Shown: in pieces, positions 35,201-54,846 of the stretch
How positions within the stretch are numbered: position 1 is the first letter of the stretch
Layout: every line of letters begins with the position of its first letter
From: an uncultured virus (IMG/VR IMGVR_UViG_3300044984_001006)
Taxonomy: Duplodnaviria; Heunggongvirae; Uroviricota; Caudoviricetes; Crassvirales
Virus record (IMG/VR): IMGVR_UViG_3300044984_001006
Direction: 5' to 3' (one strand)
DNA length: 64,000 nucleotides
Notes under the pieces: generated by a model
Told to the model about the DNA's origin: nothing
Database searches by the model: none
The model's input: only the letters and a program-made list of their open reading frames with translations
Made by a program: the position numbers and the translations under genes

Positions 35201-37640
35201 TATATCTATTGCATCGGCCGATGAATTTAATTTTTTAGATAGTTCTGAAGATAATTTAAGTGGAACTGCTGGATTAAATTTTTATCAACTACAAACTAAA
35301 CCTTTAATAGGTAGAGTTTCTACGGTTAATCAAATTGGAGTTGTTGCTTCTGATATGATACCTTTCTTAAGTGTATATGAAACAAGAGCTGAACAAAGTT
35401 TATTAGAATTGTTTTGGGAAACCGCTACAACCGGTTTAATATCTGATCTGAATGCAGATGTATTAACAGGGTTTAATGGTCCCGTAAGTTTTGGTAATGT
35501 TAATTATACCCATTTTGAATGGCAAGATCCAAATGGAAGTGGAGATGCAAAAGGAGTTGAAGATTCAAAATACATAACTGATGAATTCTATGTTTTAAAC
35601 CAAAACGGAATTATCCTACCAAATACGACAGTTACTATTGACACAATTTTTGACGGAAGTGGCGTTAGTAGATTAGGTGATTTTGGAATAGAAGCAACTA
35701 ATGATGGTACGAATGATTTATATAGATTGTTTATAACACCAACATCTACATTTGTATTTAATAACAATGCCGCTATAAAGGAATCATATACTTTTACATT
35801 TAATGTAGTTGATATTTCTATTCCAACCCAACCTATTTCATCAACATTAACTATAAACGGCAGATTAGGTAATAGTACCCCAATTATAACTACTTCAGTA
35901 ACAAATTATAATATAACACAAAACACAACAGACTTTGTAACTTTAGAAGCAAATAATGGTTCGTTTTTATTATCTGAGACTGGGTTAAAATGGAGTATAG
36001 ATAGTGGTAATCCTAGTTCTTATTTTCAAATAGGGGAATATACTGGTTTATTAGAATTAATAGATGATCAAATACCATTAGGTATATATAATTTGGTAAT
36101 AAAAGTACAAGACGCTGTTAATACGTCTACTGGTGCAATTTTACCTGTTGAAGGAACTAATTTTGGTACAAAATTTGCTACTATTGAGTTAATTATAAAC
36201 GTGGGTGATTCACCTGTACCTTATTGGTTAAGGCCTAATTATACAAGTCAACCTATACAATCAAATGGTATTTGCGGTACCTCATCTGCAAATGACGCTG
36301 GTATGGTTTACATAGGCAAAAAAGAAAATCTAACAAGCGCGTACTTGCCTACTATACCGGGCTTTAGTGGTACTTATGATATTATTGAAAATGTAGAAGT
36401 TGAGAATGCAGAGGATTATGGGTTTAATACAATTCAGGCAGAAGGATTATTTGAAGGTGAATATAGATTTTCAGTTAAATTAGATGTCTTCGCTCTTCCA
36501 ATATGTCCAGATGGGCCAGCGGGATTTGCTTCTGCTAAAGGTAGAGCTCAAATATATTTATATAAAAGAATATATAACGAAGCTACACCGGGAGTTTGGG
36601 CATTGGTAAATAATGAAAATAATTATGGTATTTCTCCTATTTATGAAATTGGGCCTTTAATAGTTTCCACTTTTGATGATCTAGGAACAATAACTTATGG
36701 CCAACCAAAATCATTAACTACCACTTTTACAATTCAAGCAGAAGAAGATGGAAACGACTACGAATATGCAGTTGGAGTTAGGTTAATAAGTGAATTTAAT
36801 AATGGTTATGGCATTGGACCGTATGTTACAATATATGGCAACGATGCTAACTACTCATATAACCAAGCATATCCATTTTCACCTCCAACAAACCCTCCTG
36901 TTACAAATGAATATGAATATTATACAGGTGTGGAAGAAATTGTTCCAGATCCAGTAGGTTATCCATCAGGCGTACCTTACACTACACCAGATGCAACTAG
37001 AGGAATTTATTATAGTTCACCAACAAATTCAATAGCTTTAGGTGATGTTGATAATGGAGATACATTAATTGTAGTCACATTAAGCACAATTAATCAACAA
37101 GCGGCACCAGGTCTTACTGCGAATATTACTGATCCAGGAGGATTTCCTTTACTTGGGTTTGGTGATGTGGTATATGTTAACCCGTTAAATACCGCTGAAA
37201 TAACAATACAGTTAGCCTATCCTTGGACTAGCGGCAATATGAGTTTGATTGGTAAAAACCTACAATTAATTACTGGAGGTAATAATTTAACAGGTAGATT
37301 ATATGCTAATACGGAAGAAGGAACAGAAATAAAAAGATTTTATACGGACTCTAATTTTACACAAAAATGGATTCCGCCGGTAGCAAATAGATATTATAAT
37401 TTTATAACATCAAAAAATTATAATCCAGACGGAGCGGAATTTGTAGGAGGAGCTCTTAAATATAGTGAATTCCCATATTATTGTGCATTTATTAATGGAG
37501 ACGGAGAAGTTGTAAGCCAATCGGCCCCCGCACCTAATGTACAAACGGCATGGATAGGACAAAATACTGCTAATACATTACCGTTGCCAATTGCAAACTA
37601 TAGTTATAATGTATTATATACAGAACCATCTGTTCCATAG
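32220..37640 (+). CDS. Large tail (stabilisation/nozzle-like) protein with beta-rich insertions
   Basis: 1806 aa; KMNQDLDDRL.P.GEY..A.N, LLFWTDNRNQPRKINV and GNR..YGNY motifs. Confidence 0.7.
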   Translation: MAEVKNSFLKSKMNQDLDDRLIPNGEYRYANNISVGKSETDDIGALKNVLGNNLLALTDNNEFLPGTNTPNPNYIPGLECIGTFMDNQNNRMFQFLTNYKDPNPNLITFPEDAPFPSGITEWKMKITVYDFDSPETYITLVEGTFLNFAKNKEFKITGVNLVEGLLFWTDNRNQPRKINVANALTSINYYTNETQISVAKYAPIDPILLYRKATAIADADSVGNVIEIETENISIVPGMTLITDGISGSDFCTVVDVTGTTITFYENLPITVASGAQLTFLISTMSDKSSVPTWPGDPAFLEDKYVRFSYRFKYDDNEYSLMAPFTQIAYIPKQKGYFIAGNETDAYRSTVLNWFENNVNNIELVVPFPDKIGNLNNSYKVSEIDILYKESDSTAVKVFETLPISAINTTLNTNNNYYIQPYQSQKPYKTLPEDQTVRVYDKVPVRAKSQESAGNRIIYGNYYDKYTSLSSINYYISVQPKSTNGTNFIEYPNHTLKKNRNYQVGFVISDKFGRQSPVILSSSDLTGLNIGGGEFAKGSTIYSSYENSILFENVRNWFGDALILYLNSPIDQERNIPSGQSGLYAIPTSNSGFAITTSTITDTTYTFTLDPPAPGGAANIIPLPGDIMRGFYTDYVKVISVSPTPTAPYSGSYTITTSGRVNDIYLHVNQEGGVKDIKFSYKYNPIGWYSYKIVVKQQEQDYYNVYLPGMLNGYPKNQTSGSQVTYTDPTAAFSNATSATWAAGNSTITISGSTTNYKVGDFVSGIISGANTTIATIINANSFTISNTPTTSGTLQAITVFRAPEGQTSVLNNGINTTQFPVSETGNTSHIVLINDNINKVPRDLSEVGPDQKQYRSSVQLYGRVENTKATLEIIGDDPDYSAKVTVINYTVGPGLNEDWVLIKPGDGIQCVEANTPAPNTDPSATGGTMPNPYRWLGNTVVVNNVVSGTTGTITISSPNWVLGGSGAPIQYTHFIITRAENVQYFPTRKADTVISIASADEFNFLDSSEDNLSGTAGLNFYQLQTKPLIGRVSTVNQIGVVASDMIPFLSVYETRAEQSLLELFWETATTGLISDLNADVLTGFNGPVSFGNVNYTHFEWQDPNGSGDAKGVEDSKYITDEFYVLNQNGIILPNTTVTIDTIFDGSGVSRLGDFGIEATNDGTNDLYRLFITPTSTFVFNNNAAIKESYTFTFNVVDISIPTQPISSTLTINGRLGNSTPIITTSVTNYNITQNTTDFVTLEANNGSFLLSETGLKWSIDSGNPSSYFQIGEYTGLLELIDDQIPLGIYNLVIKVQDAVNTSTGAILPVEGTNFGTKFATIELIINVGDSPVPYWLRPNYTSQPIQSNGICGTSSANDAGMVYIGKKENLTSAYLPTIPGFSGTYDIIENVEVENAEDYGFNTIQAEGLFEGEYRFSVKLDVFALPICPDGPAGFASAKGRAQIYLYKRIYNEATPGVWALVNNENNYGISPIYEIGPLIVSTFDDLGTITYGQPKSLTTTFTIQAEEDGNDYEYAVGVRLISEFNNGYGIGPYVTIYGNDANYSYNQAYPFSPPTNPPVTNEYEYYTGVEEIVPDPVGYPSGVPYTTPDATRGIYYSSPTNSIALGDVDNGDTLIVVTLSTINQQAAPGLTANITDPGGFPLLGFGDVVYVNPLNTAEITIQLAYPWTSGNMSLIGKNLQLITGGNNLTGRLYANTEEGTEIKRFYTDSNFTQKWIPPVANRYYNFITSKNYNPDGAEFVGGALKYSEFPYYCAFINGDGEVVSQSAPAPNVQTAWIGQNTANTLPLPIANYSYNVLYTEPSVP

Positions 37641-37693
37641 TATATAGTACTACAATTAAATTAAAAACCATAAAAAAAACGTGATTATAAAGT

Positions 37694-39220
37694 ATGGCAG
37701 CAATATTAGAATTAAAATACTTTAACTCCTTTTGGTTAAAGAAGTTAGACACCATAGTGGAAGTAGAAAATACAGGCGCAGAAGTAGAGAGTAATGTTTC
37801 TAATAATGCTACTATAAATATAACATCTTCCAATAATGAAATTAGGGTTGGACAAAATGTTAGTTGGGCTGGTGCACCTGCTCCAAATCCTTCCGTATAT
37901 AAAGTAATAAGTCCTACTCAATTTATATTAAGTGAACCTGTAACTGTAGCGGATGGTGTAGGTTTAACTTTTGGTCCATTAACTGATTTTACTTATATAC
38001 CAAATGCTTATGCAGATGGTCCAACTGATTGGTTTATTGAAGAAGCTAGAATACGAGGTGGATATAATAATACAAATGTCGATCTTGGAGTTAAAGCTTA
38101 TATTGTGGAAGATAATATTCTACAACAGCATAGACAAAATTCTTTGATATATTCTGGTGTATTCAATTCAAGAACGGGTGTTAATAAAACAAATGAGTTT
38201 TCAGTTGGAGAAGATATAACAAGAAGTTTAGATCCAGCAAATGGTTCTATTCAAAAATTATATTCAGAAGATACAAACTTAATTGTATTCCAAGAATTTA
38301 AAGTTAGTCAAGCATTAATTGATAAAGATGCTATTTATTCAGCGGAAGGACAACCAATGACAACATCTGGAGCTCAAGTAATTGGCCAGATTCAAGCTTA
38401 TGCTGGTAACTATGGTATTGGTACTAATCCTGAAAGTTTTGCTGTTTATGGCTTCCGTAAGTACTTTGTAGATAGAAACAGAAATGTTGTATTAAGATTG
38501 TCACAAGACGGTATATCCGAAATATCAGAATATGGAATGGGTGATTTCTTTAGAGATAATCTTTCTATAATCGGTAATGATGGATTTATATTAGGTATGT
38601 GGGATATGCACAATAAAGAATATGTTTTATCATTGCAGCCTGTATCTGGTACTTACAAGACATTAACATTTGATGAAGATGTATCAGGATGGACAAGTTT
38701 CTTTGATTTTAAACCAAACTGGGGTGGAAGTTTAAGAAATAACTTTTACACTTTTAAAAATGGTGAAATATGGAAACATTATTCTCCAGCTAATAGCGGA
38801 TGGGGTAGATTCTATGGTGTGAATTATGATTCAGCAGTTGAGGTTATATTTAATCCCGATGTATCTTTAGTTAAGACTTTTAAAACAATAAATTATGAAG
38901 GAAGTACTGGTTGGGAAACTTTATCATTTCACACTGACTCTGATGTTTCAGTTCCAGTATCTAAAGCAACTTATACAACGACTCTTGCTGGTTTAGAATT
39001 ACAGTTATTTACTAACTCGTTTAAAAGGAAAGAGAATAAATACTTTGCAAATCTTATTAATATTACACCGGCTTCAAACAGCGAGATCGTATGGGGAAGT
39101 TCAATGACAGGTGTTAAAGGAACAACGGCAACAGTTAGAATGAACTATTCTAATGCAACATTGCAAACAAGTGCCCAATTATTTGCGGTATCTTCGGATT
39201 ACATAGACTCATCTTACTAA
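37694..39220 (+). CDS. Tail protein (nozzle C-terminal-like)
   Basis: GSIQKL...DTNL.VFQE.KV, YGIGTNPESFA, LRLSQDGI and GWTSF motifs. Confidence 0.65.
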   Translation: MAAILELKYFNSFWLKKLDTIVEVENTGAEVESNVSNNATINITSSNNEIRVGQNVSWAGAPAPNPSVYKVISPTQFILSEPVTVADGVGLTFGPLTDFTYIPNAYADGPTDWFIEEARIRGGYNNTNVDLGVKAYIVEDNILQQHRQNSLIYSGVFNSRTGVNKTNEFSVGEDITRSLDPANGSIQKLYSEDTNLIVFQEFKVSQALIDKDAIYSAEGQPMTTSGAQVIGQIQAYAGNYGIGTNPESFAVYGFRKYFVDRNRNVVLRLSQDGISEISEYGMGDFFRDNLSIIGNDGFILGMWDMHNKEYVLSLQPVSGTYKTLTFDEDVSGWTSFFDFKPNWGGSLRNNFYTFKNGEIWKHYSPANSGWGRFYGVNYDSAVEVIFNPDVSLVKTFKTINYEGSTGWETLSFHTDSDVSVPVSKATYTTTLAGLELQLFTNSFKRKENKYFANLINITPASNSEIVWGSSMTGVKGTTATVRMNYSNATLQTSAQLFAVSSDYIDSSY

Positions 39221-39230
39221 AATTTAATCA

Positions 39231-39704
39231 ATGAATGACAAATTAGGAACAAAAACTGAAAATAGAATAATTAGCCAAGACTATATTGATAAGGTTGAAT
39301 ATTTAGAACAAACTTTGTTAGCAATGGATGATCCCAATGTAGCTAAAGGTAATACAGATTTGTTTCCATTAAAGCATTCATTTTCACACGGTATATACAT
39401 ACGGGAGATGTTTATGGAGAAAGATAGCGTTGTTATCGGTAAACTTCATAAGTTCTCCCATACGTGGTTTTTATTGAAAGGTCAATTACTAGTATCAACA
39501 GATGAAGGATCAAATCAATACATAGCTCCTTGTTATGTTAATGCTCCTGCTGGTACAAAAAGAGTTATATATGCGGAGGAGGATTCTATATTTATTAATG
39601 TACATCCAAATCCAGATAATATAACAGATACAGATGAGCTTGAGAATATTTTAGCATGTACATCGTATAAAGAATATAATGAATATAAACTATTAAAAGA
39701 ATAA
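39231..39704 (+). CDS. Cupin-like protein
   Basis: H.F..G.Y.REM......GK.H...H...G...P......G.KR pattern. Confidence 0.65.
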   Translation: MNDKLGTKTENRIISQDYIDKVEYLEQTLLAMDDPNVAKGNTDLFPLKHSFSHGIYIREMFMEKDSVVIGKLHKFSHTWFLLKGQLLVSTDEGSNQYIAPCYVNAPAGTKRVIYAEEDSIFINVHPNPDNITDTDELENILACTSYKEYNEYKLLKE

Positions 39705-39707
39705 TAT

Positions 39708-40511
39708 ATGAGTATGGTAGTAGTTGGAGTAATAGGTGCCGCAGGTACAATAGCTTCAGGATTAATAGGTGCTGGCGCTGCTAAGAAAAGAGAAAGAGCA
39801 GCTGCACAAGATAAAGCTAGATTAGGCGCTGAGCTTAACCAATTAGAAAATAGTAGACAAGCAATTATAAATCCTTACTCTACAACAAAAGACATGAGTA
39901 GCTTGGCTAAAGATTTATCTGGTACATTAAGTAATCCTTATGCTAATTTAGGTGTTGCTACAAATGCAGCTAAATTTGAGGCAGAGCAGATTGATGTTTC
40001 ATTAGCAAATACATTGGACACGTTAAAAGATACTGGAGCAGGAGCAGGCGGTGCAACAGCATTAGCTCAAGCGGCATTAAAAGCTAAACAAGGTATTTCT
40101 TCTAATATTGAATCTCAAGAAGCTAACAATGAAAAAATGAAAGCACAAGGGGAAGCTCAATTACAAGAGGCTAAAATGCAAGAGAAACAAAGAATACAAG
40201 GTGTTCAAATTGATGAAGCTCGTCGCGTGCAATCAGCAGAGGCGGCTGGTAAGTCATTTATGTTTGGTGCACAAGAAAATAGAGAACAACAAAAAATAGA
40301 CAGAGTTGCGGGACAATTAGGAGGTGCTCAAGCACAACAAATGCAGGCACAAGCGGATAGAACAGGAGCAATTACCGGTATGATTGGTGGTTTATCATCA
40401 ATAGCAGGAAGTATGGCTGGAAGTGCTGGATCTGGAGCAACAAGTACTCCTGGGTCAGGAGCAGGTTATGCATCTCAGTTTGGAGCAATGGCAAATCAAT
40501 TTAAAAAATAA
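39708..40511 (+). CDS. Putative ejection (pilot) protein
   Basis: Gly/Ala-rich hydrophobic ends with a Gln-rich coiled coil; first of three internal-protein genes. Confidence 0.6.
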   Translation: MSMVVVGVIGAAGTIASGLIGAGAAKKRERAAAQDKARLGAELNQLENSRQAIINPYSTTKDMSSLAKDLSGTLSNPYANLGVATNAAKFEAEQIDVSLANTLDTLKDTGAGAGGATALAQAALKAKQGISSNIESQEANNEKMKAQGEAQLQEAKMQEKQRIQGVQIDEARRVQSAEAAGKSFMFGAQENREQQKIDRVAGQLGGAQAQQMQAQADRTGAITGMIGGLSSIAGSMAGSAGSGATSTPGSGAGYASQFGAMANQFKK

Positions 40512-40519
40512 AGATATAT

Positions 40520-41926
40520 ATGGGAGCATATTCAAATCCACAAATACCTATTGACACACAATCAGGACAATACTATAGGGATCTTACAAATACAATAGCA
40601 AGCAATACTGTTAATACTATTAACACATGGGCTGCAAAAGCCGCTGAGAATAAAAAAAATAATGAAGCTTTAAAAGTAAAAGTTGGAGAAGAAGAAAGTG
40701 CGTTATATAGAAATCTAAGCAGTACACAGCAACAAAATCCTACAGTTAATTTTGAAGAATTATATAGACCTCAAATAAAAAGATACGCTGAATTAAGAAC
40801 AAGCATATTAAACGGAACAAGTACTGATCCTTCTAGAGATAGAATGGAAGCAGATAAAATATTTGCAAGCGTTGGTAATATTAAAAACTCATTAGTAGAT
40901 TTATCAAGTGAAGGTTTTGATGAAAAATATTCTAAAATGGGGGGGGCCGGCGGTTACGCTGTAAAAGAAAATGATCCAAATGTAATGAAGTCGATGCTAA
41001 TATTCTCAGGAAAATTACCTGGTAAAAAAGTAGCAAGATTTGAAGATAACGATCCTTCTAAAGTCGTTTGGGATATATACGACGGTGAAACTAAAATACA
41101 ATCTTTATCAGCTGAACAATTAAAGAAAGCGGCTAGTGGCCAAGGTTTATTAAAAGTAATACCAAATGCTGCAGATTCTATAGACAACGCAAAAGCAGCT
41201 GTACCAGATGTATTTGATGTGAAAGACGGATTACCAACTGGAACAATTAAACAAGAATATTTAGGGGAAGTATACGAGAAAGAATTGCCGGGACAAGAAA
41301 CATCGATAGTTAGTGGTTATCAAAAAAATACCAAAAAATATGTAGCTACAGCAAAAATTAATAAAGAAGCTATTATGGCAAACCAAAACTTTTTAAATGT
41401 TTTAAATGCTAAAGCTGACGGTTTCATTAATGGCTCTGCGGATAATTCTCAAGCAATATTATTCCACAATACATATATTGCTAAGTCAGATCAAGATTTG
41501 CTTGAATGGGACAAACCTATGACTATAGAACAACAAAATAAATTCAAATACGATTATAGAATGTTTGTTATAGATGGATTACCGGAAGAACAAACTGTTC
41601 CAGGATCTGGAATTATTGAAAAAGAAGAAATTACAAAACAAGTTATATCTAAACCAACAGGTGGTAAAGGAGGAAGTAATAAACCAAATAAACCATCTGC
41701 GGCCGCTGAAAAACAAGCAAAATTAGATGCCGAAGTTGCTGATTTAATAAAAACTAAAAAAGGGGGCGTTACTAGACAAGGGTATACATTAAGTATTATA
41801 GATGGTAGATGGGGCCTTTATGATAAAGATGGGTTACCAAAACCTGGAACAGAAAATATTACGAACCCTACAGAATTAGCTACATTTATTGGTGGATCAC
41901 GACCAGGTAAAACAAAATTAAAATAA
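40520..41926 (+). CDS. Putative ejection/internal virion protein
   Basis: Position between the pilot-like and giant genes. Confidence 0.55.
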   Translation: MGAYSNPQIPIDTQSGQYYRDLTNTIASNTVNTINTWAAKAAENKKNNEALKVKVGEEESALYRNLSSTQQQNPTVNFEELYRPQIKRYAELRTSILNGTSTDPSRDRMEADKIFASVGNIKNSLVDLSSEGFDEKYSKMGGAGGYAVKENDPNVMKSMLIFSGKLPGKKVARFEDNDPSKVVWDIYDGETKIQSLSAEQLKKAASGQGLLKVIPNAADSIDNAKAAVPDVFDVKDGLPTGTIKQEYLGEVYEKELPGQETSIVSGYQKNTKKYVATAKINKEAIMANQNFLNVLNAKADGFINGSADNSQAILFHNTYIAKSDQDLLEWDKPMTIEQQNKFKYDYRMFVIDGLPEEQTVPGSGIIEKEEITKQVISKPTGGKGGSNKPNKPSAAAEKQAKLDAEVADLIKTKKGGVTRQGYTLSIIDGRWGLYDKDGLPKPGTENITNPTELATFIGGSRPGKTKLK

Positions 41927-41944
41927 AAAATAACAATAATATAT

Positions 41945-44900
41945 ATGGCAAAGTATTTTAATAATAACGGAGAAGAATATACTATAGAAGAAATCGTAGC
42001 AGCTGCTGAAGAAAACAATAAAAGTGTTGAAGACATTATAGCAGATAATGGTTTAACTATGGACGGTGAGAAGCCGGGAAAGTCTCAGGGTGTAACTGCA
42101 AAGAAACCGGTAGTTGCGCCAAAAAAACAAAAGTTGGTTTCACCTTCGGGAAATACTTCTTCGGGTTGGAATACTAAACCTACACCAAAATATGGTGTTG
42201 AAGCCATTACAGAAACTTTTCAAATAAAAAAGAAAGCTCAAGAGAAAAAAGCAACAACTAAAAAAGCAGAAGAACCAGATTTTAATGCTGCTAGATTAAG
42301 AGTCGCTGCACAGGCCGGGCAAGCAGATCCTAATGCTGTACCTGGAAGTTTTGGTTACGAAACATTTAAAGCTGCTAAGAAGAAAGAAGCAAAAATAGAG
42401 GCTGCAAAAGAAGATGAAAAAGTTGATTTTGAGAGTAGGATGTCAGGCATTGTATTAAGAAACAATAACGAGGCTAAAAAATGGTATGAAGATAACTTAA
42501 ATAATTCTCAATTAACAGAAGACGATAATGCTGAAATTGATAGTTATATTGAATCAGAATTAGCCAAAAATAATACAATTCAAAAGGTTGCTGCTAATAA
42601 TAAAAGCGGTAATCTTAGCTTAGTTGCTAAAGGAGGAGCCCCCTCTACTGGGTATGAAAATGTTATATCTCAAAAATATCAAGCATTCCCGGATGAGGTT
42701 GAAAAAATAAAAGCTGAATTAAAAAGAAAAAACTTATTAGGTAAAGTTTCTGAAGATGAAATAATTAAGGAAGCAAGTAATCTATGGAAAGCAAAAGAAG
42801 TTAAAAAAAGAAAAGAATCAAAATTTAGAGATTCTTTAGAGGAAACAACAAATATAAGTGATGTAGCAAAAAGCGTAGTAAATGACTATGTAATAAAAAA
42901 GAGTACCAAAGAAGCCAACGATTTTGTAAAAGAAACAGTATTCAAAGAAAGCTTAGATAGAACAAGTGAAAACTATATATCTAAAATTAAAGAAATTGAC
43001 AAAAAATTAAAACCAAAAGGTTATAAGTTTACAAGCCAACAAGAATTAGATGAGCAAAATGCTCTTATAGTAAACAGAAATAATCTTATAAAAGATATAA
43101 ACAGCAATGAAGATTTAATAGACTCATCTGTTAAAAAAATAAACAAATTATCTGATAGTGTAGATGATTTAGCTTTGCAGGGAGATATGTTTAGTCGTGA
43201 TTATTCTATGCTGGGTGTTGGTAAAAAATTATATTTAAACTTTGCTAATCAAATTGGAGGTGGTGTAGCGGGCCTTGGATTATACCTAAATCAAGGTACT
43301 GAAATGGCTTATGATGTGCTTGGACTAGAGGAGCTGATTGGTATGGAAAATCCAATTACATATCTTAAAAACGTGGTATCTGATAAAAAGGCTGCTATAG
43401 ACGATAGACTTACTTATGAATTTGCTAAACCACGTACAGGAAGTACAGAGGCTTATTTAGAAGAAGCTGGAGATTTATTCATAACTCAAGCTCCTAACCT
43501 GTTATTAATGGCATTGACAGGAGGAACTAGTACTGCGGAAAAAGTAATTGCAGAACAATTAGCAAAAGAAGCGGCTCCTAGTTTATTAACTAAAGCAGGT
43601 ACATTCGCAAAAGACTATTTAACGCTTAATGCACAGACTGGGGCTATGGCTGGCGTTTCAACTGGTGGTAAATATCTTGAAATGATTAACGAAGAAAGAA
43701 ATGGATATTATACGGAAGATGGTAAATTTATAAAACCTGATTATAATGCATTCCAATTAATAGTAGCCCCGGCCGCATTTGGATATGTTGAAGGGGTTTT
43801 TGAAAAGTCTACGGCTAGAATATTAGAAAGAGGTAAAGGTTTCTTTAAAACAGCAGCTAAACAAGCACCAGAAGCGTGGATGGATTTTAATGTAACTACT
43901 ACAAAAAAATTATTAAAGCAAGCAGGTATTGATATTGCAAAAGGGCAGGGTGAAGAACAACTTTCTGAGCAGCTTACTAATTTTGGTCAAAATGCTATAA
44001 ATAAAGTTGTATTAGGGAAAGAAGTAAGTTTGTTTGAAAATACAGGAACAGTATTTAAAGATACAGCTATTCTTACTACAATGCTATCCGGAATTCCTAT
44101 TTTAGCTGGAGCAGCAATACGCCCGTTTATGAGTAGAACTACTTCTAAACAATTAAGTGATAACGCTCGACAATTAGCTTCTATTATGTATAGGCTTGAT
44201 AATGGAACTGATTTATCTTCAATTAGTAAAGAAGCTTTACAAAAAGAAAAACAAAAAATTGAAGCACAAAGTACAGCTTTATTGCAAAAAACAATATCTG
44301 ATATTGATGCAATGCCAGTTAGCACTTTTGACTATATAAATAAGTCTGTTGCTAAAATAGCAGATCTAATAAATAAAGCTAATCAAATAAACGAAGGTGA
44401 TGGTGATGCTAAATCAAAATCAGAGGATTTAGGAATACTGGAAGGACAATATAAATATGAAACACTAAAACTAAATACTTTAGTAAGTGGAGTGGAAAAT
44501 GTAAAAACCTTTGGTAAACCAATATCTTCAATTGGTAGAGCACAATTAATAGAATTAAATACAGAAAGATTTCTTGCTAACATGGATGAAACCACCACTG
44601 ATGACGAAAAGAATAATATTCGTGAAAGGGTTGAAAACAAGGTTAAGGCAGTATATAAAAATGAAGGTATTGATCTAAAAGAAGCTAGAGAAACAGAATT
44701 TAATGAAAATTTAGCTGCAGCTCAAAAATTAGCAGAAGCTGAGGATGTTACAGTGATATTAGCCGAAGACTACGATGACGCTTCAAGGCAAATGCAGGCG
44801 TTAATAGCTGACAAAAAAATTACGGAAGAAGACGCAAACATATTAGGATTTAAAGGAACAGATGGTAAAATAGTTACAAGTTCATTAAATGGTAAGGATT

Positions 44901-47900
44901 ACATAGTAATAAATAAACAACAGTCTATTAATCAAAAGGCAGTAACAGTAGGTTCGCATGAATTTTTACATAAATTATTACAAAAAACATTAAGTAAAGC
45001 TGGTGCACAAATAGCTTTGGGTCAACAGTTAAAAGAATACTTATTAGCTTCTAATCCTGAACTATTCATGAATGAAAAAGTATTAGGTAGATTACGTGCA
45101 AATTATAGAAACGCTTCTGAAGGTATTCAAAATGAGGAAATATTAACCTTGTTTTCTGATGCTTTGCTAAATGGAAATATAAAATATAACGAATCGTTTT
45201 TTACAAAGTTAGGTGACACTATAAGAAGATACTTACAAGATCTTGGTTTAATAAGCATAAAATTTGATTCTGGTAGAGACGTATTTAATTTTATAAGAGA
45301 TTATAATGACACTATCAAAAAAGGAGGAGAAGCAGGTAAAGCAATTAAAAATCTATTTAAAGAAGGAGCAAAAGGTAAATTAACCGAAGAAGGAGGAGCA
45401 CAAGCTGATACATCTAGCCTAAGTTCAAAGTCTATTGAAGAAAGAATGGATAAATTAGATGATCAACTAGCTAGTAACGAAATTGATCTTGATAAGTATG
45501 AATCTGAGATGAAAAAACTTGAACAAGAAGAGTTTGAAGAATCTAAAAAAACATACGAAGAAGAGAAGAAAGTTGTTAAAAAAGAAACTACTAAAAAAGA
45601 TACAACAAAAAAAGAACCAACTGAAGTAAGTGAAGCCGCAACAAAAGCTAAAGCTAAATTAGATGCAATTGGTAATGATCCAAAAGGTTTTAATCCAAAT
45701 AATCCAGCCATTTACGATGAGCTAGATAAGATGGTAAAAGTAAAATCTAGAAACTATAAAACTTCTAACGGTACTGTAATTGATCTTACAAATAAAAACA
45801 AAGGGGGATTAGATGGATTCAACATGGAAGAAATGACAAGCTATGTAACAATGTCAATGCTCCCTTATATAAACAAATTTGATCCTTCTAGAAATGACAG
45901 TTTGTATGGATATATAAACGCTCAGTTAGCAAATAGAATGAAAGCGGCATTAAAATCTGGCCAAGTAGCTAACGTAGTATTTACAGAAGATGTTACTGAA
46001 ATGACTAAACTTTCAAATGAGGATGTTGAAGTTAAAACACCAACATTACCAGAAAGAAAAAAGTATCAAAATATTTTAGAGTCTGGTGTATTTTCGCCGG
46101 AAGTAATTACGGATGTTCAAGCAAAAATATTACCTATAATAAGAACGTTGAAATCTAGGGTTGATGAGAAGACTACACTTAATAGAACAACCGCTCCTAT
46201 AATTAACGAAATACGTACTGAGATTGGTAAACAAGCCGACATTGACATTAAAAGAGCAATGGGAGGAAAAGAGGATGGTCAACTTAGAAAATTCTTATTA
46301 ATAAATAAAAAGCCTATACTTGAAAACATGACTACTACCTGGTTAATGGGTAAAGACAACGGAAAGACCGTATCTGGGGGTATGCCATTTGCTATTCAAA
46401 AAAGGATAAATGGTCAATGGACCAGCTTTCCTGATTGGATTGGTAAAAAAGTAGATAGAGAGTCTGTTGAAACAGATTTAGCAGGTAGAACTTCTGGAGC
46501 TGAACTAGTTAGAAGATTACCAAATGCAGCTAATAATGTTCCTGATGATGTTTTCTTAGAATCAATCATAGATCCAGCAACCGGATTGCCTTTAAGAGGT
46601 AGAAAAGAAGCATTAGCCAAAGCAATGAGTGAGGAATTAGCATTTGATTTAATATCTGACGATATGTTATCAGGCGGACCAATTTATCAAGCATTACAAA
46701 AAAATCAAGAAATACTTGGAGCAGAGGTTGGAAAAGTAACCGTAGAAAATATAAACAGATTAGCTGAAAGAGGTAATATTAAATACTCCTTATCTGCAGA
46801 TATGATGTTAGATATTGAAAATAATTCAACAGCTTTAGGAAAAGCAATTGTAGGTTTAACTAAAATCACAAATAGTAGTGTTAAAAAAATACTAACAAAT
46901 ATATTTGTAAATGATTGGGATGAAAATCAAATAAAAAAAGCTACTGAAAGTTTACTTTATGTGTTAAAAAGAAATGAAAAATATTTTGGATCTGATGAAC
47001 TTATAAATTATGAAGGGAATACAATAGAATATCTTTCTAATATCAGCAAAGAACAAGATTTTGGTAAATCTATTTGGAAACAATTATCATCTGATGTAGC
47101 AGTTGCTGCATTTTATAGAAAACCAGAAAAAGTTAAAAAGCTAAAAGAATTAAACCAAGATTTTATGATTGATACTCTTAAAGATTTTGGCGATGCAGAA
47201 GGTACAAGAATTCTATATTCCATGTGGGCTCCCACTGTTATAAATGGTAATTTTGATATATCTTTATTCCGCATGAAGGATATGGACAAAAGGAGAACCG
47301 CTTTTATTGATGAGTTAAACAAAGCTAGAAAAATAGCTTTTGGAACAAAAACAAATAATATTTCTGAAAAAGTATTAAAAGAAAAGTATAGAGGTTATGC
47401 AAAAGTGAACAAAGTACATTTTAATTATTTTGATGGTACATTTGATATAAAAAAAGACAGATTAAGAACTAAAGCTGCTAAAGATTTAACAATATATGCG
47501 GCTAAGTGGTGGGGTAAAAATTTAAAGGAATTAGAGCCATCATATCAAGCAGCTATGTTTACATTATTAGCAAATAATGCTGATAGCGTTGTAAGGTCTG
47601 CTGCTCCTGTTGTTGGTATTATAGATGAAGGAATAAAAGTTCCTTATGTATACGAGCATTCCAAACCAGTAAGAGTAGTTTTAGCACAGCTAATTGATAA
47701 GTATATTAATAAAAACGACAATATTACAGAGGATGAAATATTTGAAAACTATAAAGTATTAATAGTACCAAAAAAAGTATCTGATATACTAGATAAATCT
47801 GGTGTAAAACAAATGATGGATCCATTTTATTTTATAAAAGATAAAACAGATTTTTCAAGATATGATAGTTTATTTAAAAATAATATTGTTCAATCTATTA

Positions 47901-50560
47901 ATATTTTTGAAGCTCAACAACAGAATATACAAAATGAAAAAGCTGCTTTAAATAATCTAAACCAAGAAAGAAACAGCAAATCTAGCGGTATAACAACAGT
48001 ATCAGATTATATTAATGATAATAATTCAAGAAGATTAGACACAGAAACTTCTTATGATTTATTAGATAAATTAGCAAAAAATATTGAGGATTATTGGGGA
48101 ATATTGCCTAATGATATTATTCTTGGCATGAATAGAGCTATAGATTATGCTGTGGATGTAATAGAAGACCGTGAAGGAGCCGGTTTATTAATGGAAGCTA
48201 TGAACCAAGGCTTGAATATTGAGACTGTTAAAAATGCTGAAAAGCAATTAAACGAGTTTATTGATAAAAACCAGCCAAAAAACGAAATGTATAGCAAATC
48301 TTTAGACTTTCAGTTTAATGATATACTAGAAAGAAACACTGGTGTCGCGGCATTTACAAAAGTATCTGATGTAGTAGCTAAAAGAACAGGTATTAAGAAA
48401 AACACATTATCATTCTTTGTACCGCCTTCAGCTGATGACTTTAGAGGTTTAACAACTTATATGTTTGCTGGTAAAGGTAAACAAGGAGAACAAGATCAAG
48501 AATTCTTTGATAAAAACTTAACTGTGCCGTATGTAAAAGGTATTAATACTTTAGATTCTGTACGTCAATCTATTAGAAAAGAATATAAGATGTTACTTAA
48601 TAACTTTCCTGATGTTAAAAAGAAACTTGAGAAATTAACGCCAGATAAAGGCTTTACTTATGATCAAGCTGTTAGGGTTTATCTTTGGTCATCAACTGGT
48701 AAAGAGGTACCTGGTTTATCAAGAACTGATAAAAATAAATTATTGTACTTTGTAAAACAAAACCCTGATTTGTTAGCTTTTGCGAACGCATTGTCAATAA
48801 CTGGTAGACAAGATGGTGGATGGATTGATCCTTCAACAACTTGGGATAGTGAAACTATTATATCTGATCTTCACAATATTACTGAAGGTGCTGGTAGAAA
48901 GAAATATCTAGAGGAGTTTATAGAGAATGCTGATGCAATATTTACAAAAGAAAACCTAAACAAGATACAATCTATATATGGTACAAATACAAGAGAAGCA
49001 TTAGAAGACTCTTTATATAGAATGAAGAATGGTAAGAATAGACCAGAAGGTACTGACAGAGTAACAAATACTTGGATGAACTGGATTAATGGTTCTACTG
49101 CCGCAATTATGTTCTTCAATACTAGATCAGCATTGTTACAGACTATATCAGCAATTAACTTCATAAACTGGAATGATAATAATCCATATATGGCAGGTAA
49201 AGCTTTTCTTAATCAGAAACAATACTGGAGTGACTTCGCAATGATTATCAATTCCGACAAATTAAAGGAAAGAAGATCTGGATTAAAAGCCGATGTTACT
49301 CAAGCCGAGATTGCTAATGCTGCAAACAGTGCTAAAAACAAATTTAACGGTGTTATATCTTATTTACAAAAAATAGGTTTTACACCTACACAAGCAGCGG
49401 ATAGTTTTTCTATCGCAGTTAGTGGTGCTACATTCTATAGAAATAGAGTTAACACATATTTGAAAGCAGGTGATACTGTACAAGAAGCTGAAGAAAAAGC
49501 ATTCAATGATTTTTCAATCATAACAGATCAATCAATGCAATCCGCCGATCCAATGTACGTTTCAAAACAACAAACGACTGCATTAGGACGCATTATATTG
49601 GCTTTTGGTAATACTCCAATGCAATATAATAGATTGATCAAAAAAGCTACGTTAGACTTAGCTAATAGACGTGGAGATTGGAAAACAAATGTTTCTAAAA
49701 TTGTATACTACGGAGCATTGCAAAATATGTTATTCTCGTTTTTACAATCTGCATTGTTTATACCATTAGGTTATGATGATGAAGAAGAACCTGATTTTTC
49801 TAAAATGACTAAAGAGGAAAAGAAAGCCTACGAAAAGTTAAAGAAAAAAGGAGAGGATAAAATATCAAACATGATTAACGGTATGGCTGATACCTTATTA
49901 AGAGGTTCAGGTGTATATGGAGCAGCTATTGCAACTGTAAAAAATACAGCAATGGAATATTTCAAACAAGAAGAAAAAGAAATGTTTGCAGATCATGCTT
50001 ATACAGTATTAGCTCTAACAAGTGTATCTCCACCAATAAGTTCAAAAGCAAGAAAACTTTACGGATCAATTAGAATTAGTAAATTTGAAAAAGATGTTAT
50101 TGCTGAAAGAGGCTGGGAAGTTACAAGAGACGGTAAATTAAACTTAGCTCCTAACTATAGAATACTAGGTAATGTAACGGTAGCAACTACCAACTTACCA
50201 TTAGATAGGGTTGTTGAAAAGGTTAATAACATGGCTGAAGTAATGGACTCTAGAAATACCAAATTACAAAGAACTGCATTAGCATTAGGATGGAAAGATT
50301 GGGAACTTAACGTGAAAAACGAAGAAAATGAAATCATCAAAGCAACGGCTAAAGAAAAACGTAAGGAGGAAGGTATAGAAAAAGCTATTGAAACAAGATA
50401 TGAAAATAAACAAAAAGAAAAAGAAATGTTTCGTGGATTATCTATAAAAGAAAAGATTGCTTATAGGAAAAAAGAAGCGCTGGATAAAAGAGAAAAGAAA
50501 CTGAAACAGAGAGAAAGACTAATTAAAAGAAGAGAAAAGAATAAAAGAAAAATGGGTTAA
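41945..50560 (+). CDS. Giant multidomain internal virion (ejection) protein
   Basis: 2871 aa; HEFLH zincin motif (44957-44971), sigma region-2-like segment, EHxxP segment and helical C-terminal region. Confidence 0.75.
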   Translation: MAKYFNNNGEEYTIEEIVAAAEENNKSVEDIIADNGLTMDGEKPGKSQGVTAKKPVVAPKKQKLVSPSGNTSSGWNTKPTPKYGVEAITETFQIKKKAQEKKATTKKAEEPDFNAARLRVAAQAGQADPNAVPGSFGYETFKAAKKKEAKIEAAKEDEKVDFESRMSGIVLRNNNEAKKWYEDNLNNSQLTEDDNAEIDSYIESELAKNNTIQKVAANNKSGNLSLVAKGGAPSTGYENVISQKYQAFPDEVEKIKAELKRKNLLGKVSEDEIIKEASNLWKAKEVKKRKESKFRDSLEETTNISDVAKSVVNDYVIKKSTKEANDFVKETVFKESLDRTSENYISKIKEIDKKLKPKGYKFTSQQELDEQNALIVNRNNLIKDINSNEDLIDSSVKKINKLSDSVDDLALQGDMFSRDYSMLGVGKKLYLNFANQIGGGVAGLGLYLNQGTEMAYDVLGLEELIGMENPITYLKNVVSDKKAAIDDRLTYEFAKPRTGSTEAYLEEAGDLFITQAPNLLLMALTGGTSTAEKVIAEQLAKEAAPSLLTKAGTFAKDYLTLNAQTGAMAGVSTGGKYLEMINEERNGYYTEDGKFIKPDYNAFQLIVAPAAFGYVEGVFEKSTARILERGKGFFKTAAKQAPEAWMDFNVTTTKKLLKQAGIDIAKGQGEEQLSEQLTNFGQNAINKVVLGKEVSLFENTGTVFKDTAILTTMLSGIPILAGAAIRPFMSRTTSKQLSDNARQLASIMYRLDNGTDLSSISKEALQKEKQKIEAQSTALLQKTISDIDAMPVSTFDYINKSVAKIADLINKANQINEGDGDAKSKSEDLGILEGQYKYETLKLNTLVSGVENVKTFGKPISSIGRAQLIELNTERFLANMDETTTDDEKNNIRERVENKVKAVYKNEGIDLKEARETEFNENLAAAQKLAEAEDVTVILAEDYDDASRQMQALIADKKITEEDANILGFKGTDGKIVTSSLNGKDYIVINKQQSINQKAVTVGSHEFLHKLLQKTLSKAGAQIALGQQLKEYLLASNPELFMNEKVLGRLRANYRNASEGIQNEEILTLFSDALLNGNIKYNESFFTKLGDTIRRYLQDLGLISIKFDSGRDVFNFIRDYNDTIKKGGEAGKAIKNLFKEGAKGKLTEEGGAQADTSSLSSKSIEERMDKLDDQLASNEIDLDKYESEMKKLEQEEFEESKKTYEEEKKVVKKETTKKDTTKKEPTEVSEAATKAKAKLDAIGNDPKGFNPNNPAIYDELDKMVKVKSRNYKTSNGTVIDLTNKNKGGLDGFNMEEMTSYVTMSMLPYINKFDPSRNDSLYGYINAQLANRMKAALKSGQVANVVFTEDVTEMTKLSNEDVEVKTPTLPERKKYQNILESGVFSPEVITDVQAKILPIIRTLKSRVDEKTTLNRTTAPIINEIRTEIGKQADIDIKRAMGGKEDGQLRKFLLINKKPILENMTTTWLMGKDNGKTVSGGMPFAIQKRINGQWTSFPDWIGKKVDRESVETDLAGRTSGAELVRRLPNAANNVPDDVFLESIIDPATGLPLRGRKEALAKAMSEELAFDLISDDMLSGGPIYQALQKNQEILGAEVGKVTVENINRLAERGNIKYSLSADMMLDIENNSTALGKAIVGLTKITNSSVKKILTNIFVNDWDENQIKKATESLLYVLKRNEKYFGSDELINYEGNTIEYLSNISKEQDFGKSIWKQLSSDVAVAAFYRKPEKVKKLKELNQDFMIDTLKDFGDAEGTRILYSMWAPTVINGNFDISLFRMKDMDKRRTAFIDELNKARKIAFGTKTNNISEKVLKEKYRGYAKVNKVHFNYFDGTFDIKKDRLRTKAAKDLTIYAAKWWGKNLKELEPSYQAAMFTLLANNADSVVRSAAPVVGIIDEGIKVPYVYEHSKPVRVVLAQLIDKYINKNDNITEDEIFENYKVLIVPKKVSDILDKSGVKQMMDPFYFIKDKTDFSRYDSLFKNNIVQSINIFEAQQQNIQNEKAALNNLNQERNSKSSGITTVSDYINDNNSRRLDTETSYDLLDKLAKNIEDYWGILPNDIILGMNRAIDYAVDVIEDREGAGLLMEAMNQGLNIETVKNAEKQLNEFIDKNQPKNEMYSKSLDFQFNDILERNTGVAAFTKVSDVVAKRTGIKKNTLSFFVPPSADDFRGLTTYMFAGKGKQGEQDQEFFDKNLTVPYVKGINTLDSVRQSIRKEYKMLLNNFPDVKKKLEKLTPDKGFTYDQAVRVYLWSSTGKEVPGLSRTDKNKLLYFVKQNPDLLAFANALSITGRQDGGWIDPSTTWDSETIISDLHNITEGAGRKKYLEEFIENADAIFTKENLNKIQSIYGTNTREALEDSLYRMKNGKNRPEGTDRVTNTWMNWINGSTAAIMFFNTRSALLQTISAINFINWNDNNPYMAGKAFLNQKQYWSDFAMIINSDKLKERRSGLKADVTQAEIANAANSAKNKFNGVISYLQKIGFTPTQAADSFSIAVSGATFYRNRVNTYLKAGDTVQEAEEKAFNDFSIITDQSMQSADPMYVSKQQTTALGRIILAFGNTPMQYNRLIKKATLDLANRRGDWKTNVSKIVYYGALQNMLFSFLQSALFIPLGYDDEEEPDFSKMTKEEKKAYEKLKKKGEDKISNMINGMADTLLRGSGVYGAAIATVKNTAMEYFKQEEKEMFADHAYTVLALTSVSPPISSKARKLYGSIRISKFEKDVIAERGWEVTRDGKLNLAPNYRILGNVTVATTNLPLDRVVEKVNNMAEVMDSRNTKLQRTALALGWKDWELNVKNEENEIIKATAKEKRKEEGIEKAIETRYENKQKEKEMFRGLSIKEKIAYRKKEALDKREKKLKQRERLIKRREKNKRKMG
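42076..42141 (+). promoter_or_regulatory. Candidate -1 programmed ribosomal frameshift signal
   Basis: In-frame G GGA AAG, 6-nt spacer, 11-bp stem (42089-42099/42110-42120); loop GAAACC complementary to GGTTTC at 42136-42141. Confidence 0.65.
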
Positions 50561-50645: not shown

Positions 50646-50784
50646 AATTTAAGCATATTTGCGGTCTTGTTTTTTGCTATTTTGAATATAATATAGCTTT
50701 TGTTTTTTTTTACAATTTGCTTTTATTGGTTATTATATTTGATTTATATATAAAGTATAAATCCAACATCTTGTACCTAAATAA

Positions 50785-52653
50785 CTATACAATCTCACAA
50801 TTACCTCCTCCACACGCTGCTGAATCAGTAAAGTTAGTGTTATCTTGTATTTCCACTACTTTTGATAGATCAACATCTTTTAATGTAGACATCATTTGTT
50901 CATAGACTTCTTTAGTACAATCTTCAAATGGAGTTTGTTTATATGTTCCGCCGTTATATGGTAAAACAGATAATCCATTATAGTATTCTTTGTTTGCCCA
51001 CATCCATTCACCTACAATTTTCCATTCATCATCTCTGACAGAAACCGTACAAGATACATTATGGGTATTGTTTCCTTTCTCATGACCAGTTTTAACCCAG
51101 TCTCTAGATATAAGCTTTACTCTTTCTAATAAATCTAATGTAGATTCATATCTTGTTATAGCTCCTTCTGGTGCTTTTTGAGGCACAGAAATTACTGATT
51201 GTAATGTAGGATTAAAATATTCATCTTCTAACAATTCTGGATGATTGATTGCAAGATAGGAATAGATTGCTTCATTCTTGCCTAAACGCATACGGCGAAT
51301 ATAATAGTCGTTATGCCAAGCGTGAATACCGCTAGAAGTGCCCAAAACAAGGCTAGTAGTTCCTGCCGGCTTAACTGCGGTGGTTCTGGCCGCTTTGTTG
51401 ATATTAAGAGCCGCTGCAATAATATTATTTGTTTCCTTAACAGTTTGTGCTGCTTCTTCATAGTTTAAATTTAAGTTAGATTCTGACGCAATGCCCGTCA
51501 TTGACACACCTAATAATGCGTCTTTTTCTGTATTCTTTCTCCATATATCACGAAGGTAATGGAAGTCTGAATATGACGCTTGTAATGTACCTAAGAATGA
51601 TGCCGCTGAAGATCTTGCATTGAAATCTTCTTGACTTTCAATATTAGACATATTAATTTCTGTTAGGTTACAGAACTGATACGGTCGTAAAGCAATTTCA
51701 CAACAAGGATTAGTACCCCAATCTTTATCATTAGTAAGATATATTCCGGGTTCGCCTGAGCCAGAAGCTTCAATTCTTTCCCAAACTTTGTCAAATGTTT
51801 TCTTATCAATTTTATGTCTTAAAAGTACTACTGAATTATTTGCTCTACCTCTTTGTGGATTATCTTCCCACCAACTACCAGCTTTACAATTTAACATTGC
51901 TGTACTATCTAAGTCAAACAATGAAATCATTGCTGCTCTTCTAATTCCGCCTGCTAAAACTGCATCGGCGATATGACACTGAATATCGTGACATTCAATA
52001 TCTGTTAATCTAGATCTATCTTCTTTTTCACGAAGGATAGCTTCAATCTTAACCAATGCTAGTCTTAATGGTTCTGGTCCTGGTGCTTTGCCCCCAGCTG
52101 TTACAAGCAATGCGCCTTTTTGTCTAATATCGGAAAGATCAAATTCAATATGTGAGGTTAATTCCCCTGTATATGATTTAAACAATGTCTTAATCGCATC
52201 AGCCCAACCAATAATACTATCCTGTACAACATAACGTTTTTTACGATCGTAATTTGGTTTTCTTATTTCAGGTAATTTCTCAATGTTGTGATTCTGGACT
52301 GAATACCCCACACCAGTTCCTCCAAGAAGTAAAAACATAGTTTCAGCAAAACTACGGATATTATCAACAGGCAAAAAAGCACAATTATAAATGCGAGCAT
52401 TATTGAGTTCAATAGCTTTACCACCAAATTGCAGGCTTCGCATCGAAGGTAAAACTTTTTTATTGAAAACAAAATTTTTGTATACTTGTTCAATTGATTC
52501 TTTCATTTGCGGAAACTTCGACACGTGCATCTCCATATTCCTGGTTACTAATTCTTCCCACGTTTCTCTACGTTCTTTTGCTGGCACATACTTTGCATAC
52601 TTTGTGTATACGGTAATATCACTTAAGATCTGCTTATCTAGGCTTAAACTCAT
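50785..52653 (-). CDS. nrdJ: Class II (adenosylcobalamin) ribonucleotide reductase
   Basis: NCAF, GGIRRAAMI, TNPCCEI, QFCNLTE, VKPAGT and C-terminal CGGGNCE; no small subunit nearby. Confidence 0.9.
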   Translation of the reverse strand: MSLSLDKQILSDITVYTKYAKYVPAKERRETWEELVTRNMEMHVSKFPQMKESIEQVYKNFVFNKKVLPSMRSLQFGGKAIELNNARIYNCAFLPVDNIRSFAETMFLLLGGTGVGYSVQNHNIEKLPEIRKPNYDRKKRYVVQDSIIGWADAIKTLFKSYTGELTSHIEFDLSDIRQKGALLVTAGGKAPGPEPLRLALVKIEAILREKEDRSRLTDIECHDIQCHIADAVLAGGIRRAAMISLFDLDSTAMLNCKAGSWWEDNPQRGRANNSVVLLRHKIDKKTFDKVWERIEASGSGEPGIYLTNDKDWGTNPCCEIALRPYQFCNLTEINMSNIESQEDFNARSSAASFLGTLQASYSDFHYLRDIWRKNTEKDALLGVSMTGIASESNLNLNYEEAAQTVKETNNIIAAALNINKAARTTAVKPAGTTSLVLGTSSGIHAWHNDYYIRRMRLGKNEAIYSYLAINHPELLEDEYFNPTLQSVISVPQKAPEGAITRYESTLDLLERVKLISRDWVKTGHEKGNNTHNVSCTVSVRDDEWKIVGEWMWANKEYYNGLSVLPYNGGTYKQTPFEDCTKEVYEQMMSTLKDVDLSKVVEIQDNTNFTDSAACGGGNCEIV

Positions 52654-52654
52654 A

Positions 52655-52909
52655 TTAATCTATTTCTAATTTAGGGGTTACTATTTCTTCATCTACTACT
52701 TCAACATTCTCTGGCCTTGCTTCTACGCCTTCTTTAACTTTTTCAGCTAACTTTGCTACAGCTTCATCATAGTCAGGCATAAATCTAATTGTTTCAAATG
52801 TGCCTGAAGCTAATGTTTTAATATTTTGGTTTTCTTGCAACAGATACTGTACAATGTTAGTTAATGAAGCTATTTTATTCTTCATTCCGATTAACTCATT
52901 CTCTTTCAT
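52655..52909 (-). CDS. Hypothetical protein
   Basis: ORF track. Confidence 0.6.
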   Translation of the reverse strand: MKENELIGMKNKIASLTNIVQYLLQENQNIKTLASGTFETIRFMPDYDEAVAKLAEKVKEGVEARPENVEVVDEEIVTPKLEID

Positions 52910-52927
52910 TCTTTTTAGTTTTAATTA

Positions 52928-53089
52928 TTAGTCTTTACTTATTTCAAGTGATATGTCAAAAAATGGTATATATAATACGTGCATTAAAGCATCATCGTAT
53001 TCATATACTCTATACCCAAATAGTATACCTGGATATACTCCCATCTCTAAAGACCAGAAGTTTTTGCCTGCGTTTCCATTAAATGTCAT
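52928..53089 (-). CDS. Small hypothetical protein (53 aa)
   Basis: Manual translation MTFNGNAGKNFWSLEMGVYPGILFGYRVY...HVLYIPFFDI. Confidence 0.55.
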   Translation of the reverse strand: MTFNGNAGKNFWSLEMGVYPGILFGYRVYEYDDALMHVLYIPFFDISLEISKD

Positions 53090-53264
53090 CTTTCGTTTGT
53101 TTTGGGTTATTAAACATCTCTATTGTTTTTATTAGTTCTTTATATCTTATTTTGCCAAACGTTTCAAATGACCACATATACCATTTTTCGATTTGTCTAT
53201 CTGCATATCTTTGTCTTGCTAATCTTTTTGTTTCAAAAGGATTAATCGTACTGTCTCGTCGCAT
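53079..53264 (-). CDS. Hypothetical protein
   Basis: ORF track. Confidence 0.45.
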   Translation of the reverse strand: MRRDSTINPFETKRLARQRYADRQIEKWYMWSFETFGKIRYKELIKTIEMFNNPKQTKDDI

Positions 53265-53662
53265 TCTTTTTGTTGTTGAGGTTTATATAAAGTTCTTGTA
53301 TCGCCATTATCTTTCATGTGTTTTTTAAACATTTTCCAGCGTAAAGGAAATGAGTCATTAGCTCTACCTTTAGTTTCTATAATAAAACTTTCACCTTCAA
53401 AATCTGGTGTATATTTCAAATTAAGTACTTTCTTATTACCTCTGTTTATAAAATCACCTTTACTATTAGATTGTCTTTCAAAACAATCGTTATCAAAATT
53501 AAAAGCAGGTATTAGTTCGTAAGTTTTATACTCATAATGAAATTTTATACCAGCATCTTGCAATGCTTTGTACATATACTTTTCAAGACCGGAAGCGAAA
53601 GTGATGCCATCATACACCACTTTCTTTGACACAACTGGTCCTTTCTTTTTAGTTCTCTTCAT
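53219..53662 (-). CDS. PD-(D/E)xK endonuclease (T7 endonuclease I / resolvase-like)
   Basis: FASGLE...YE....YTPDF....IIETKG. Confidence 0.8.
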   Translation of the reverse strand: MKRTKKKGPVVSKKVVYDGITFASGLEKYMYKALQDAGIKFHYEYKTYELIPAFNFDNDCFERQSNSKGDFINRGNKKVLNLKYTPDFEGESFIIETKGRANDSFPLRWKMFKKHMKDNGDTRTLYKPQQQKECDETVRLILLKQKD

Positions 53663-53906
53663 TCTTCTCTATTCTTCTTATTACAGCATCCATAAGATCT
53701 TCTGAATAAACTTCTTTAGCTTTCTGTAAATAAAGAACAGCATCCATTAATTCTTCTTGTAAATGATTAAGCCATTCAAATATTCTAGACTGATCTTCTT
53801 CTAATGTTACGCCATACTTTTTGTAGCCAACATCAGATCTACCAACAAATTTTGTAACAACTCGCTCAACTACTGGGTCCCTAAATTTTATTGTCTTTTC
53901 TGTCAT
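53649..53906 (-). CDS. Conserved phage protein (all-alpha NTP pyrophosphatase-like)
   Basis: RS..G..KYG.TL....WL.HLQEELMDA.LY. Confidence 0.6.
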   Translation of the reverse strand: MTEKTIKFRDPVVERVVTKFVGRSDVGYKKYGVTLEEDQSRIFEWLNHLQEELMDAVLYLQKAKEVYSEDLMDAVIRRIEKNEEN

Positions 53907-53907
53907 A

Positions 53908-54837: not shown

Positions 54838-54846
54838 AAATTTGAT

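Follow-up and report, generated by a model that had tools for sequence, protein, structure and literature searches.

The start of a giant gene in an uncultured lake phage raised the question of whether one gene there could be the source of two proteins, one very long and one very short. The DNA analyzed, hereafter the window, was the whole 64,000-nucleotide stretch of IMG/VR record IMGVR_UViG_3300044984_001006. Its giant gene (41945..50560, by ORF call) encodes 2871 aa in the 0 frame and is on the plus strand, as are all features described below unless noted. The original prediction was that a pseudoknot-stimulated -1 ribosomal frameshift near the start of this gene gives a short, Cys-containing alternative product.

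Pfam and PHROG searches indicated that the window encodes a terminase, portal, virion proteins, groEL/groES, a crAss-type muzzle and replication genes. The phage resembles podoviruses of Bacteroidota, e.g., phi38:1, and the nearest named records are Cellulophaga phi38:1/Calle and the Flavobacterium elemo phages. Upstream of the giant gene, at 37694..41926, PF25729/PF25731, PHROGs and synteny identified the muzzle gene, a 157-aa gene and two probable ejection genes (267 and 468 aa), making the giant gene the third and final of three probable ejection/cargo genes. The same order, muzzle, small gene and then three genes with the giant gene last, is found in phi38:1 (gp99-101) and phi18:3 (gp120-123, whose annotation derives from virion mass spectrometry). 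A location after the muzzle and at the end of three cargo-like genes is that of a podovirus ejection or crassvirus cargo protein; crassvirus cargo genes are described in the available part of PMC10172136.

Profile and structure searches with the giant protein gave no Pfam, PHROG or other family match and no PDB match, and tblastn of its first 1000 aa against GenBank phages returned nothing meaningful. Its similarity to phi38:1 gp101 was weak (E 1e-4). Based on synteny and this one match, the giant gene probably encodes an ejection-type or cargo protein of the virion; as position carries this assignment and the sequence support is weak, we use "ejection protein" as an inferred label.

Several other features of the window were recorded. 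In window regions 44945-45170 and 45812-45958, the giant protein has an HEFLH motif, near residue 1005, that resembles the metallopeptidase signature HExxH, and a faint match to sigma-70 region 2 (E 0.24). The muzzle-like protein is divided between two genes of 1806 and 508 aa (32220-39220), both phrog_14478, and is a single gene in phi38:1. Regions 16044-17597, 20845-21462, 50785-55632 and 60818-61576 encode GroEL, GroES-like, ribonucleotide reductase, MazG-like, thymidylate synthase and sigma-factor-like proteins. ARAGORN identified a 94-nt tRNA-Ile at 627-720 on the minus strand with the unusual anticodon AAT, which may be spurious.

Slippery heptamer and downstream pseudoknot

Codons 44-46 of the giant gene read CCG GGA AAG, so that the predicted heptamer G_GGA_AAG, an in-frame X_XXY_YYZ shift site as used in programmed -1 frameshifting, is present at 42076..42082. 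This heptamer is also the slip site of lambda gpG/gpGT. It was found in frame within codons 3-120 in 20 of 51 non-redundant giant genes, compared with a single occurrence in 91,967 codons further along these genes. After the heptamer the -1 frame was open for 31-42 codons in 19 of the 20 genes, the remaining one being cut by a contig end; only 0.7% of 12,283 background positions had a -1 frame open for at least 30 codons. Other cassettes carried A_AAA_AAG, xxA_AAG or xAT_TTT_C at an equal distance from the stem. The 6-nt spacer of the window (42083..42088) is typical of the cassettes scored: the register of the heptamer was invariably the one required for slippage, and 70 of 77 cassettes had a spacer of 5-7 nt. 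G_GGA_AAG is strongly shift-prone in E. coli, according to the review PMC5009743, which is cited throughout from part of its text.

Two further lake metagenomes had contigs spanning the site (X4 record 7 and X5 record 10), with 0 differences, and none of the four runs listed indels there. A second heptamer, G_GGA_AAT, was located where it had been predicted (42148..42154), and its proposed role as a signal was rejected: GGGAAAN occurred in only 4 of 32 homologues and any XXXYYYZ in 7 of 32, and we interpret it as a by-product of Gly-Lys codons in the tail of the -1-frame peptide.

Both helices of the predicted pseudoknot were borne out. The 11-bp stem 1 (42089..42099 with 42110..42120), which starts 6 nt after the heptamer, was the minimum-energy fold, at -15.7 kcal/mol for 42086-42125 (z -4.5; none of 200 shuffles as good), with weaker z values of about -2 to -2.5 over longer intervals. 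Within its loop, GAAACC (42103..42108) is complementary to GGTTTC (42136..42141), forming stem 2. The two helices together had a custom H-type score of -30.6, reached by none of 150 shuffles. Among 77 cassettes (20 A_AAA_AAN and three slip-less cassettes were left out) the real mean was -24.2 versus -5.9 for 616 shuffles, and 67 of the 77 exceeded all eight of their own shuffles, with the slip site taken as the candidate with the best structure, a choice that favors real sequences somewhat. A stable 3' structure in the window therefore stands at the distance, about 5-9 nt downstream of the shift site, that is found in programmed -1 frameshifting.

Comparison of the 10 sequences of the window's clade indicated that the pairing itself is conserved, with 92% of cells paired versus 28-44% for slid partners, and with 95% paired in stem 2. 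Changes on both sides were found in five of the 11 stem-1 pairs and one of the six stem-2 pairs, counts that are inflated by the relatedness of the sequences. Among cassettes the stem sequences are very diverse yet pairing is kept, stem 2 taking forms such as GAAACC/GGTTTC, GAAGCC/GGCTTC, GGATGC/GCATCC and GGGTGC/GCACCC. A subclass of seven loci (L122, L158, L179, L188, L191, L217 and L233) had G_GGA_AAG, only a 5-bp GC-rich stem, no cysteines and the same tail.

The -1-frame peptide and its tail

The hidden -1-frame ORF (42076..42177) comprises the 33 codons and TAA stop (42175-42177) that had been predicted; added to the 44 shared residues, it completes a 77-aa transframe product. A -1-frame stop is present just upstream, the open segment beginning at 42070, and the ORF therefore has no start of its own.

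The conserved part of this peptide is an aromatic, Gly-rich tail (42133..42174) with the consensus YGIxxGxYFFG. In 32 genes, chosen by a motif that spans six of the 11 tail columns, the amino-acid entropy over these 11 codons was 1.12 in the -1 frame, 1.77 in the 0 frame and 1.94 in the +1 frame. The nucleotide entropy by -1-frame codon position was 0.77/0.66/1.24, i.e., variation peaked at third positions. One Gly outside the selecting motif was present in 32 of 32 genes and was encoded by all four codons. Isolated substitutions in the tail (n = 102) were silent in the -1 frame only in 59 cases and in the 0 frame only in 24, the reverse of the gene body (n = 526), for which the corresponding numbers were 27 and 403. 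Together, these data indicated that selection acts on the amino acids that the tail encodes in the -1 frame, i.e., that the window has the conserved open -1 frame under coding selection that characterizes a programmed -1 frameshift.

We considered whether the nucleotide conservation could instead reflect a regulatory element in the RNA or DNA, or a motif read in the 0 frame, with the open -1 frame arising incidentally. In keeping with such an explanation, the cassette has a raised GC content (0.43 versus 0.32) and codon choice is biased at some tail positions (at one Phe, TTC in 29 of 32 genes), but the concentration of variation at -1-frame third positions and the constant register of the heptamer, with its 5-7 nt spacer, are not expected of it. 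Rfam matched no family on the cassette, its three matches, elsewhere in the sequence, being chance ones (E 3.5-4). We regard this explanation as highly improbable and interpret the tail as protein-coding.

AlphaFold modeling of P0003, a natural in-frame relative, predicted a beta-hairpin with two helices at the N-terminus and a second beta-hairpin (E59-65/E68-74), formed by the tail, at the C-terminus, joined by a linker of low confidence. The pLDDT was about 90 at residues 11-30 and 80-85 in the C-terminal hairpin, for an alignment that included the window's segment as one row. The N-terminal mini-domain (41945..42058) would be common to the giant and short products. A homo-tetramer prediction of P0003 scored 0.02. 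No known family or fold was found for the short product in Pfam (best match not below E 0.04), fold (best Z 2.9, best E 0.52) or Atlas (best 0.80) searches, and tblastn of the -1 peptide and of P0003 against GenBank phages returned nothing meaningful. In-frame examples of the short protein numbered only 17 among 1.84 billion representatives, and the 10 that were checked were singletons. A separate short gene as the source of these 17 proteins was considered and is unproven; P0001 matches the start of the L321 giant gene and looks like an indel variant.

Two features of the peptide proved not to be general. Cysteine was dispensable, being absent between the slip site and the tail in all nine A-run cassettes (described below) and in 8 of 86 cassettes of the pseudoknot class. 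The Cys-anchored count is circular for Cys position, and the Cys count of 93 versus 88 under a codon-resampling null was uninformative; rows with a mis-picked slip site had been dropped (L034 from the pseudoknot scores and Cys counts, L110 and L123 from the Cys counts). The terminal Tyr was confined to the window's clade. The tail was found joined to unrelated N-terminal domains, was kept in cassettes without a pseudoknot and, in many homologues, stood wholly 3' of the pseudoknot, stem 2 being upstream of it.

Distribution of the cassette and the A-run class

Under the homologue test set in advance, the heptamer, the covarying pseudoknot and the -1 peptide were all found to be kept in homologues. 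We collected 115 loci through two upstream genes, which with the window gave 93 giant-gene starts and 51 non-redundant ones, after leaving out L002 (wrong ORF picked) and loci on contigs too short to reach the giant gene. The cassette was present in 37 of the 51, 32 with the tail motif, four with variant tails and one cut by a contig end, and the 14 giant genes without it were scattered over a quick version of a muzzle tree. The muzzle is near-identical in L030, which has no cassette, and L031, which has one, while their giant-gene starts differ, a pattern suggestive of ejection-module exchange. Searches of seven cassette-less records, of which only two were at least 90% complete, did not reveal the tail at any other place. 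Based on this patchy distribution and the lack of the tail elsewhere, the short product would be optional or replaceable and not universally needed.

A scan with the tail pattern only returned 120 loci, the first 80 of which represented 74 distinct viral loci. For 73 of these 74, the motif was encoded close to the beginning of a long ORF, in its -1 frame, with a stop following within 40 codons. In a scan of genome contigs, five of 58 matches were cassettes (four in Flavobacteriaceae MAGs, one in an Acidimicrobiaceae MAG) and the others looked like chance.

A second class of cassette, 9 of 101 non-redundant cassettes, carried an A9-A10 run and the same tail; stem 2 did not score in these cassettes, and Cys was missing ahead of the tail. 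When a pattern of at least ten A's plus the tail was scanned for, 16 of 17 matches were cassettes, each with exactly ten A's. In all nine reference records examined, of about five lineages (phi38:1, Calle_1, elemoE, four Pachyviridae, Panino and MW202828), the sole coding-strand run of at least nine A's within 14-41 kb was where the giant gene begins, with Gly/aromatic segments after it in an alternative frame. Four records had an A10-A11 run near the giant-gene start and then a Gly/aromatic -1 segment, features that their annotation does not include: L236:16114 (phi38:1 gp101), L346:12114, L237:17931 and L348:33448. The candidate tails of the nine reference records had no significant score with the tail HMM, and their homology to the window-type tail is therefore not established.

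The run is A9 as deposited in the four Pachyviridae and Panino, so that the N-terminal part and the giant ORF are in different frames in these phages. The small gene before the giant gene resembles the latter's N-terminal part, out of frame at A9, at L345:18240-18551 (phi18:3 gp122) and in L349, L350 and L351, and likewise in Panino (L347:31055-31320). Either slippage is truly obligatory in these phages, or the frame break stems from a sequencing error in the homopolymer.

The A-run class led us to weigh RNA-polymerase slippage as the source of the short product in the window phage as well. Polymerase slippage is known to occur at runs of nine A or T (PMC5009743), and relatives have A9-A11 runs at the same place. 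The window's giant gene, in contrast, has no run of at least nine A's, the only A9/T9 run of the window being at 50703, outside the gene, and it has a heptamer and a pseudoknot, signals that act on ribosomes. Of the alternatives considered, this is the one to which we give least credence, and for the window a ribosomal frameshift is the preferred reading.

A real frameshift might also serve merely to throttle the giant protein, a truncation valve of the dnaX gamma kind with an idle short product. The patchy distribution of the cassette, the variable length and content of the linker and the dispensability of its cysteines are all compatible with this. A nearby stop alone would suffice for a valve, however, and the 12-residue tail is under -1-frame amino-acid selection at the expense of 0-frame changes, stands wholly 3' of the pseudoknot in many homologues and is retained in A-run cassettes. 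We therefore consider an idle product very improbable and favor a frameshift made for the protein it yields.

Proposed mechanism, role and relation to known recoding systems

We consider it very likely, based on these sequence features, that a programmed, pseudoknot-stimulated -1 ribosomal frameshift yields the 77-aa product from the giant gene at a set ratio. The signals and their conservation are present in the sequences, as is selection on the -1 peptide, and from them we infer the slipping itself and its rate. Ribosomes at codons 45-46 would meet the H-type pseudoknot 6 nt ahead and pause, and some would slip from G_GGA_AAG to GGG_AAA, translate 33 codons and stop. One gene would thus produce the 2871-aa ejection-type protein and the 77-aa protein in a fixed ratio, the latter starting with the shared N-terminal mini-domain and ending in an amphipathic beta-hairpin that is conserved, with a loose linker, in many cases rich in Cys, between them.

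If the frameshift occurs, our leading but tentative suggestion is that the short protein serves as an adaptor with two ends, in the manner of lambda gpGT: its N-domain would engage the giant protein or the site where that protein docks, and its hairpin a second conserved partner, while cargo is loaded into the head. Somewhat less likely is that the short protein is co-packaged and, through its hairpin, acts on the host envelope when ejection takes place; it may also have some other role. The chaperone or membrane-targeted role first suggested is likewise tentative. More broadly, we speculate, with a little less than even confidence, that podoviruses of Bacteroidota (uncultured lake and marine clades, Pervagoviridae, Pachyviridae and Elemovirus) have in common a recoding switch where the giant ejection gene begins, built from heptamer and pseudoknot or from an A9-A11 run, that makes an unannotated beta-hairpin microprotein for cargo loading or ejection. 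In the A9 phages as deposited (the phi18:3 group and Panino), the full-length giant protein would then need the slip.

A literature search, with most subscription journals and supplements outside its coverage, found no paper on a frameshift at this site. Phage frameshifts are placed chiefly in tail chaperones and capsid or tail extensions, in the part of the review cited (PMC5009743) and in a prediction-tool paper. New here would be the truncation of a giant ejection-type gene and a conserved protein missed by gene callers. The cassettes also supply a natural set of dozens of bacterial pseudoknot stimulators that covary, and inside one gene family they apparently change between ribosomal and polymerase slippage. 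The cultured phage phi38:1 has a candidate site, and an infection proteome is public (PXD066074; PMC13288928, cited from part of its text).

Frameshifting in structural or encapsulation genes is known to give two forms of a protein, as in T7/T3 gene 10, other phage capsid and tail extensions and carboxysome csoS2 (PMC5009743). In the gene 10 type the protein is extended at its end, and CsoS2A is truncated late with three new residues; neither kind is at the start of an ejection gene. Truncation of dnaX tau to gamma arises by ribosomal frameshift in E. coli and by transcriptional slippage in Thermus thermophilus (PMC5009743), an alternation that the pseudoknot and A-run classes apparently parallel. 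Gamma, in contrast, ends one codon past the shift, whereas the window product would gain a conserved new C-terminal motif.

The closest likeness in layout is to E. coli copA, in which an early -1 shift gives the 70-aa CopA(Z) from a gene of 834 aa (PMC5009743; confirmation of the frameshift is noted in the available part of PMC9548414). As proposed for the window, an early -1 shift in a long gene produces a short N-terminal protein there. The two differ in that the window's is a gene of a phage virion module, would add about 33 -1-frame codons and has a tail that is itself selected, whereas CopA(Z) is essentially the N-terminal domain, with almost no new residues.

In lambda G/GT a -1 shift fixes the ratio of two proteins that share an N-terminus, the -1 part binding a second partner, and the HCTV-5 g-t site uses G_GGA_AAG (PMC5009743). 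The window would resemble this system in being a phage -1 shift that sets a two-product ratio and has a functional -1 part. G/GT, however, belongs to long-tailed phages, lies between the major tail and tape-measure genes and shifts near the 3' end of a short gene to give a longer product. The window site has no tape-measure context, follows the muzzle and two probable ejection genes, and lies within a cargo gene of podovirus type, in which a shift at codon 45 of 2871 would truncate the protein. It falls outside the G/GT family. If the broader reading given above is true, phages would have, next to G/GT, another widespread recoding system, and the short protein would be a missing part of the ejection machine.
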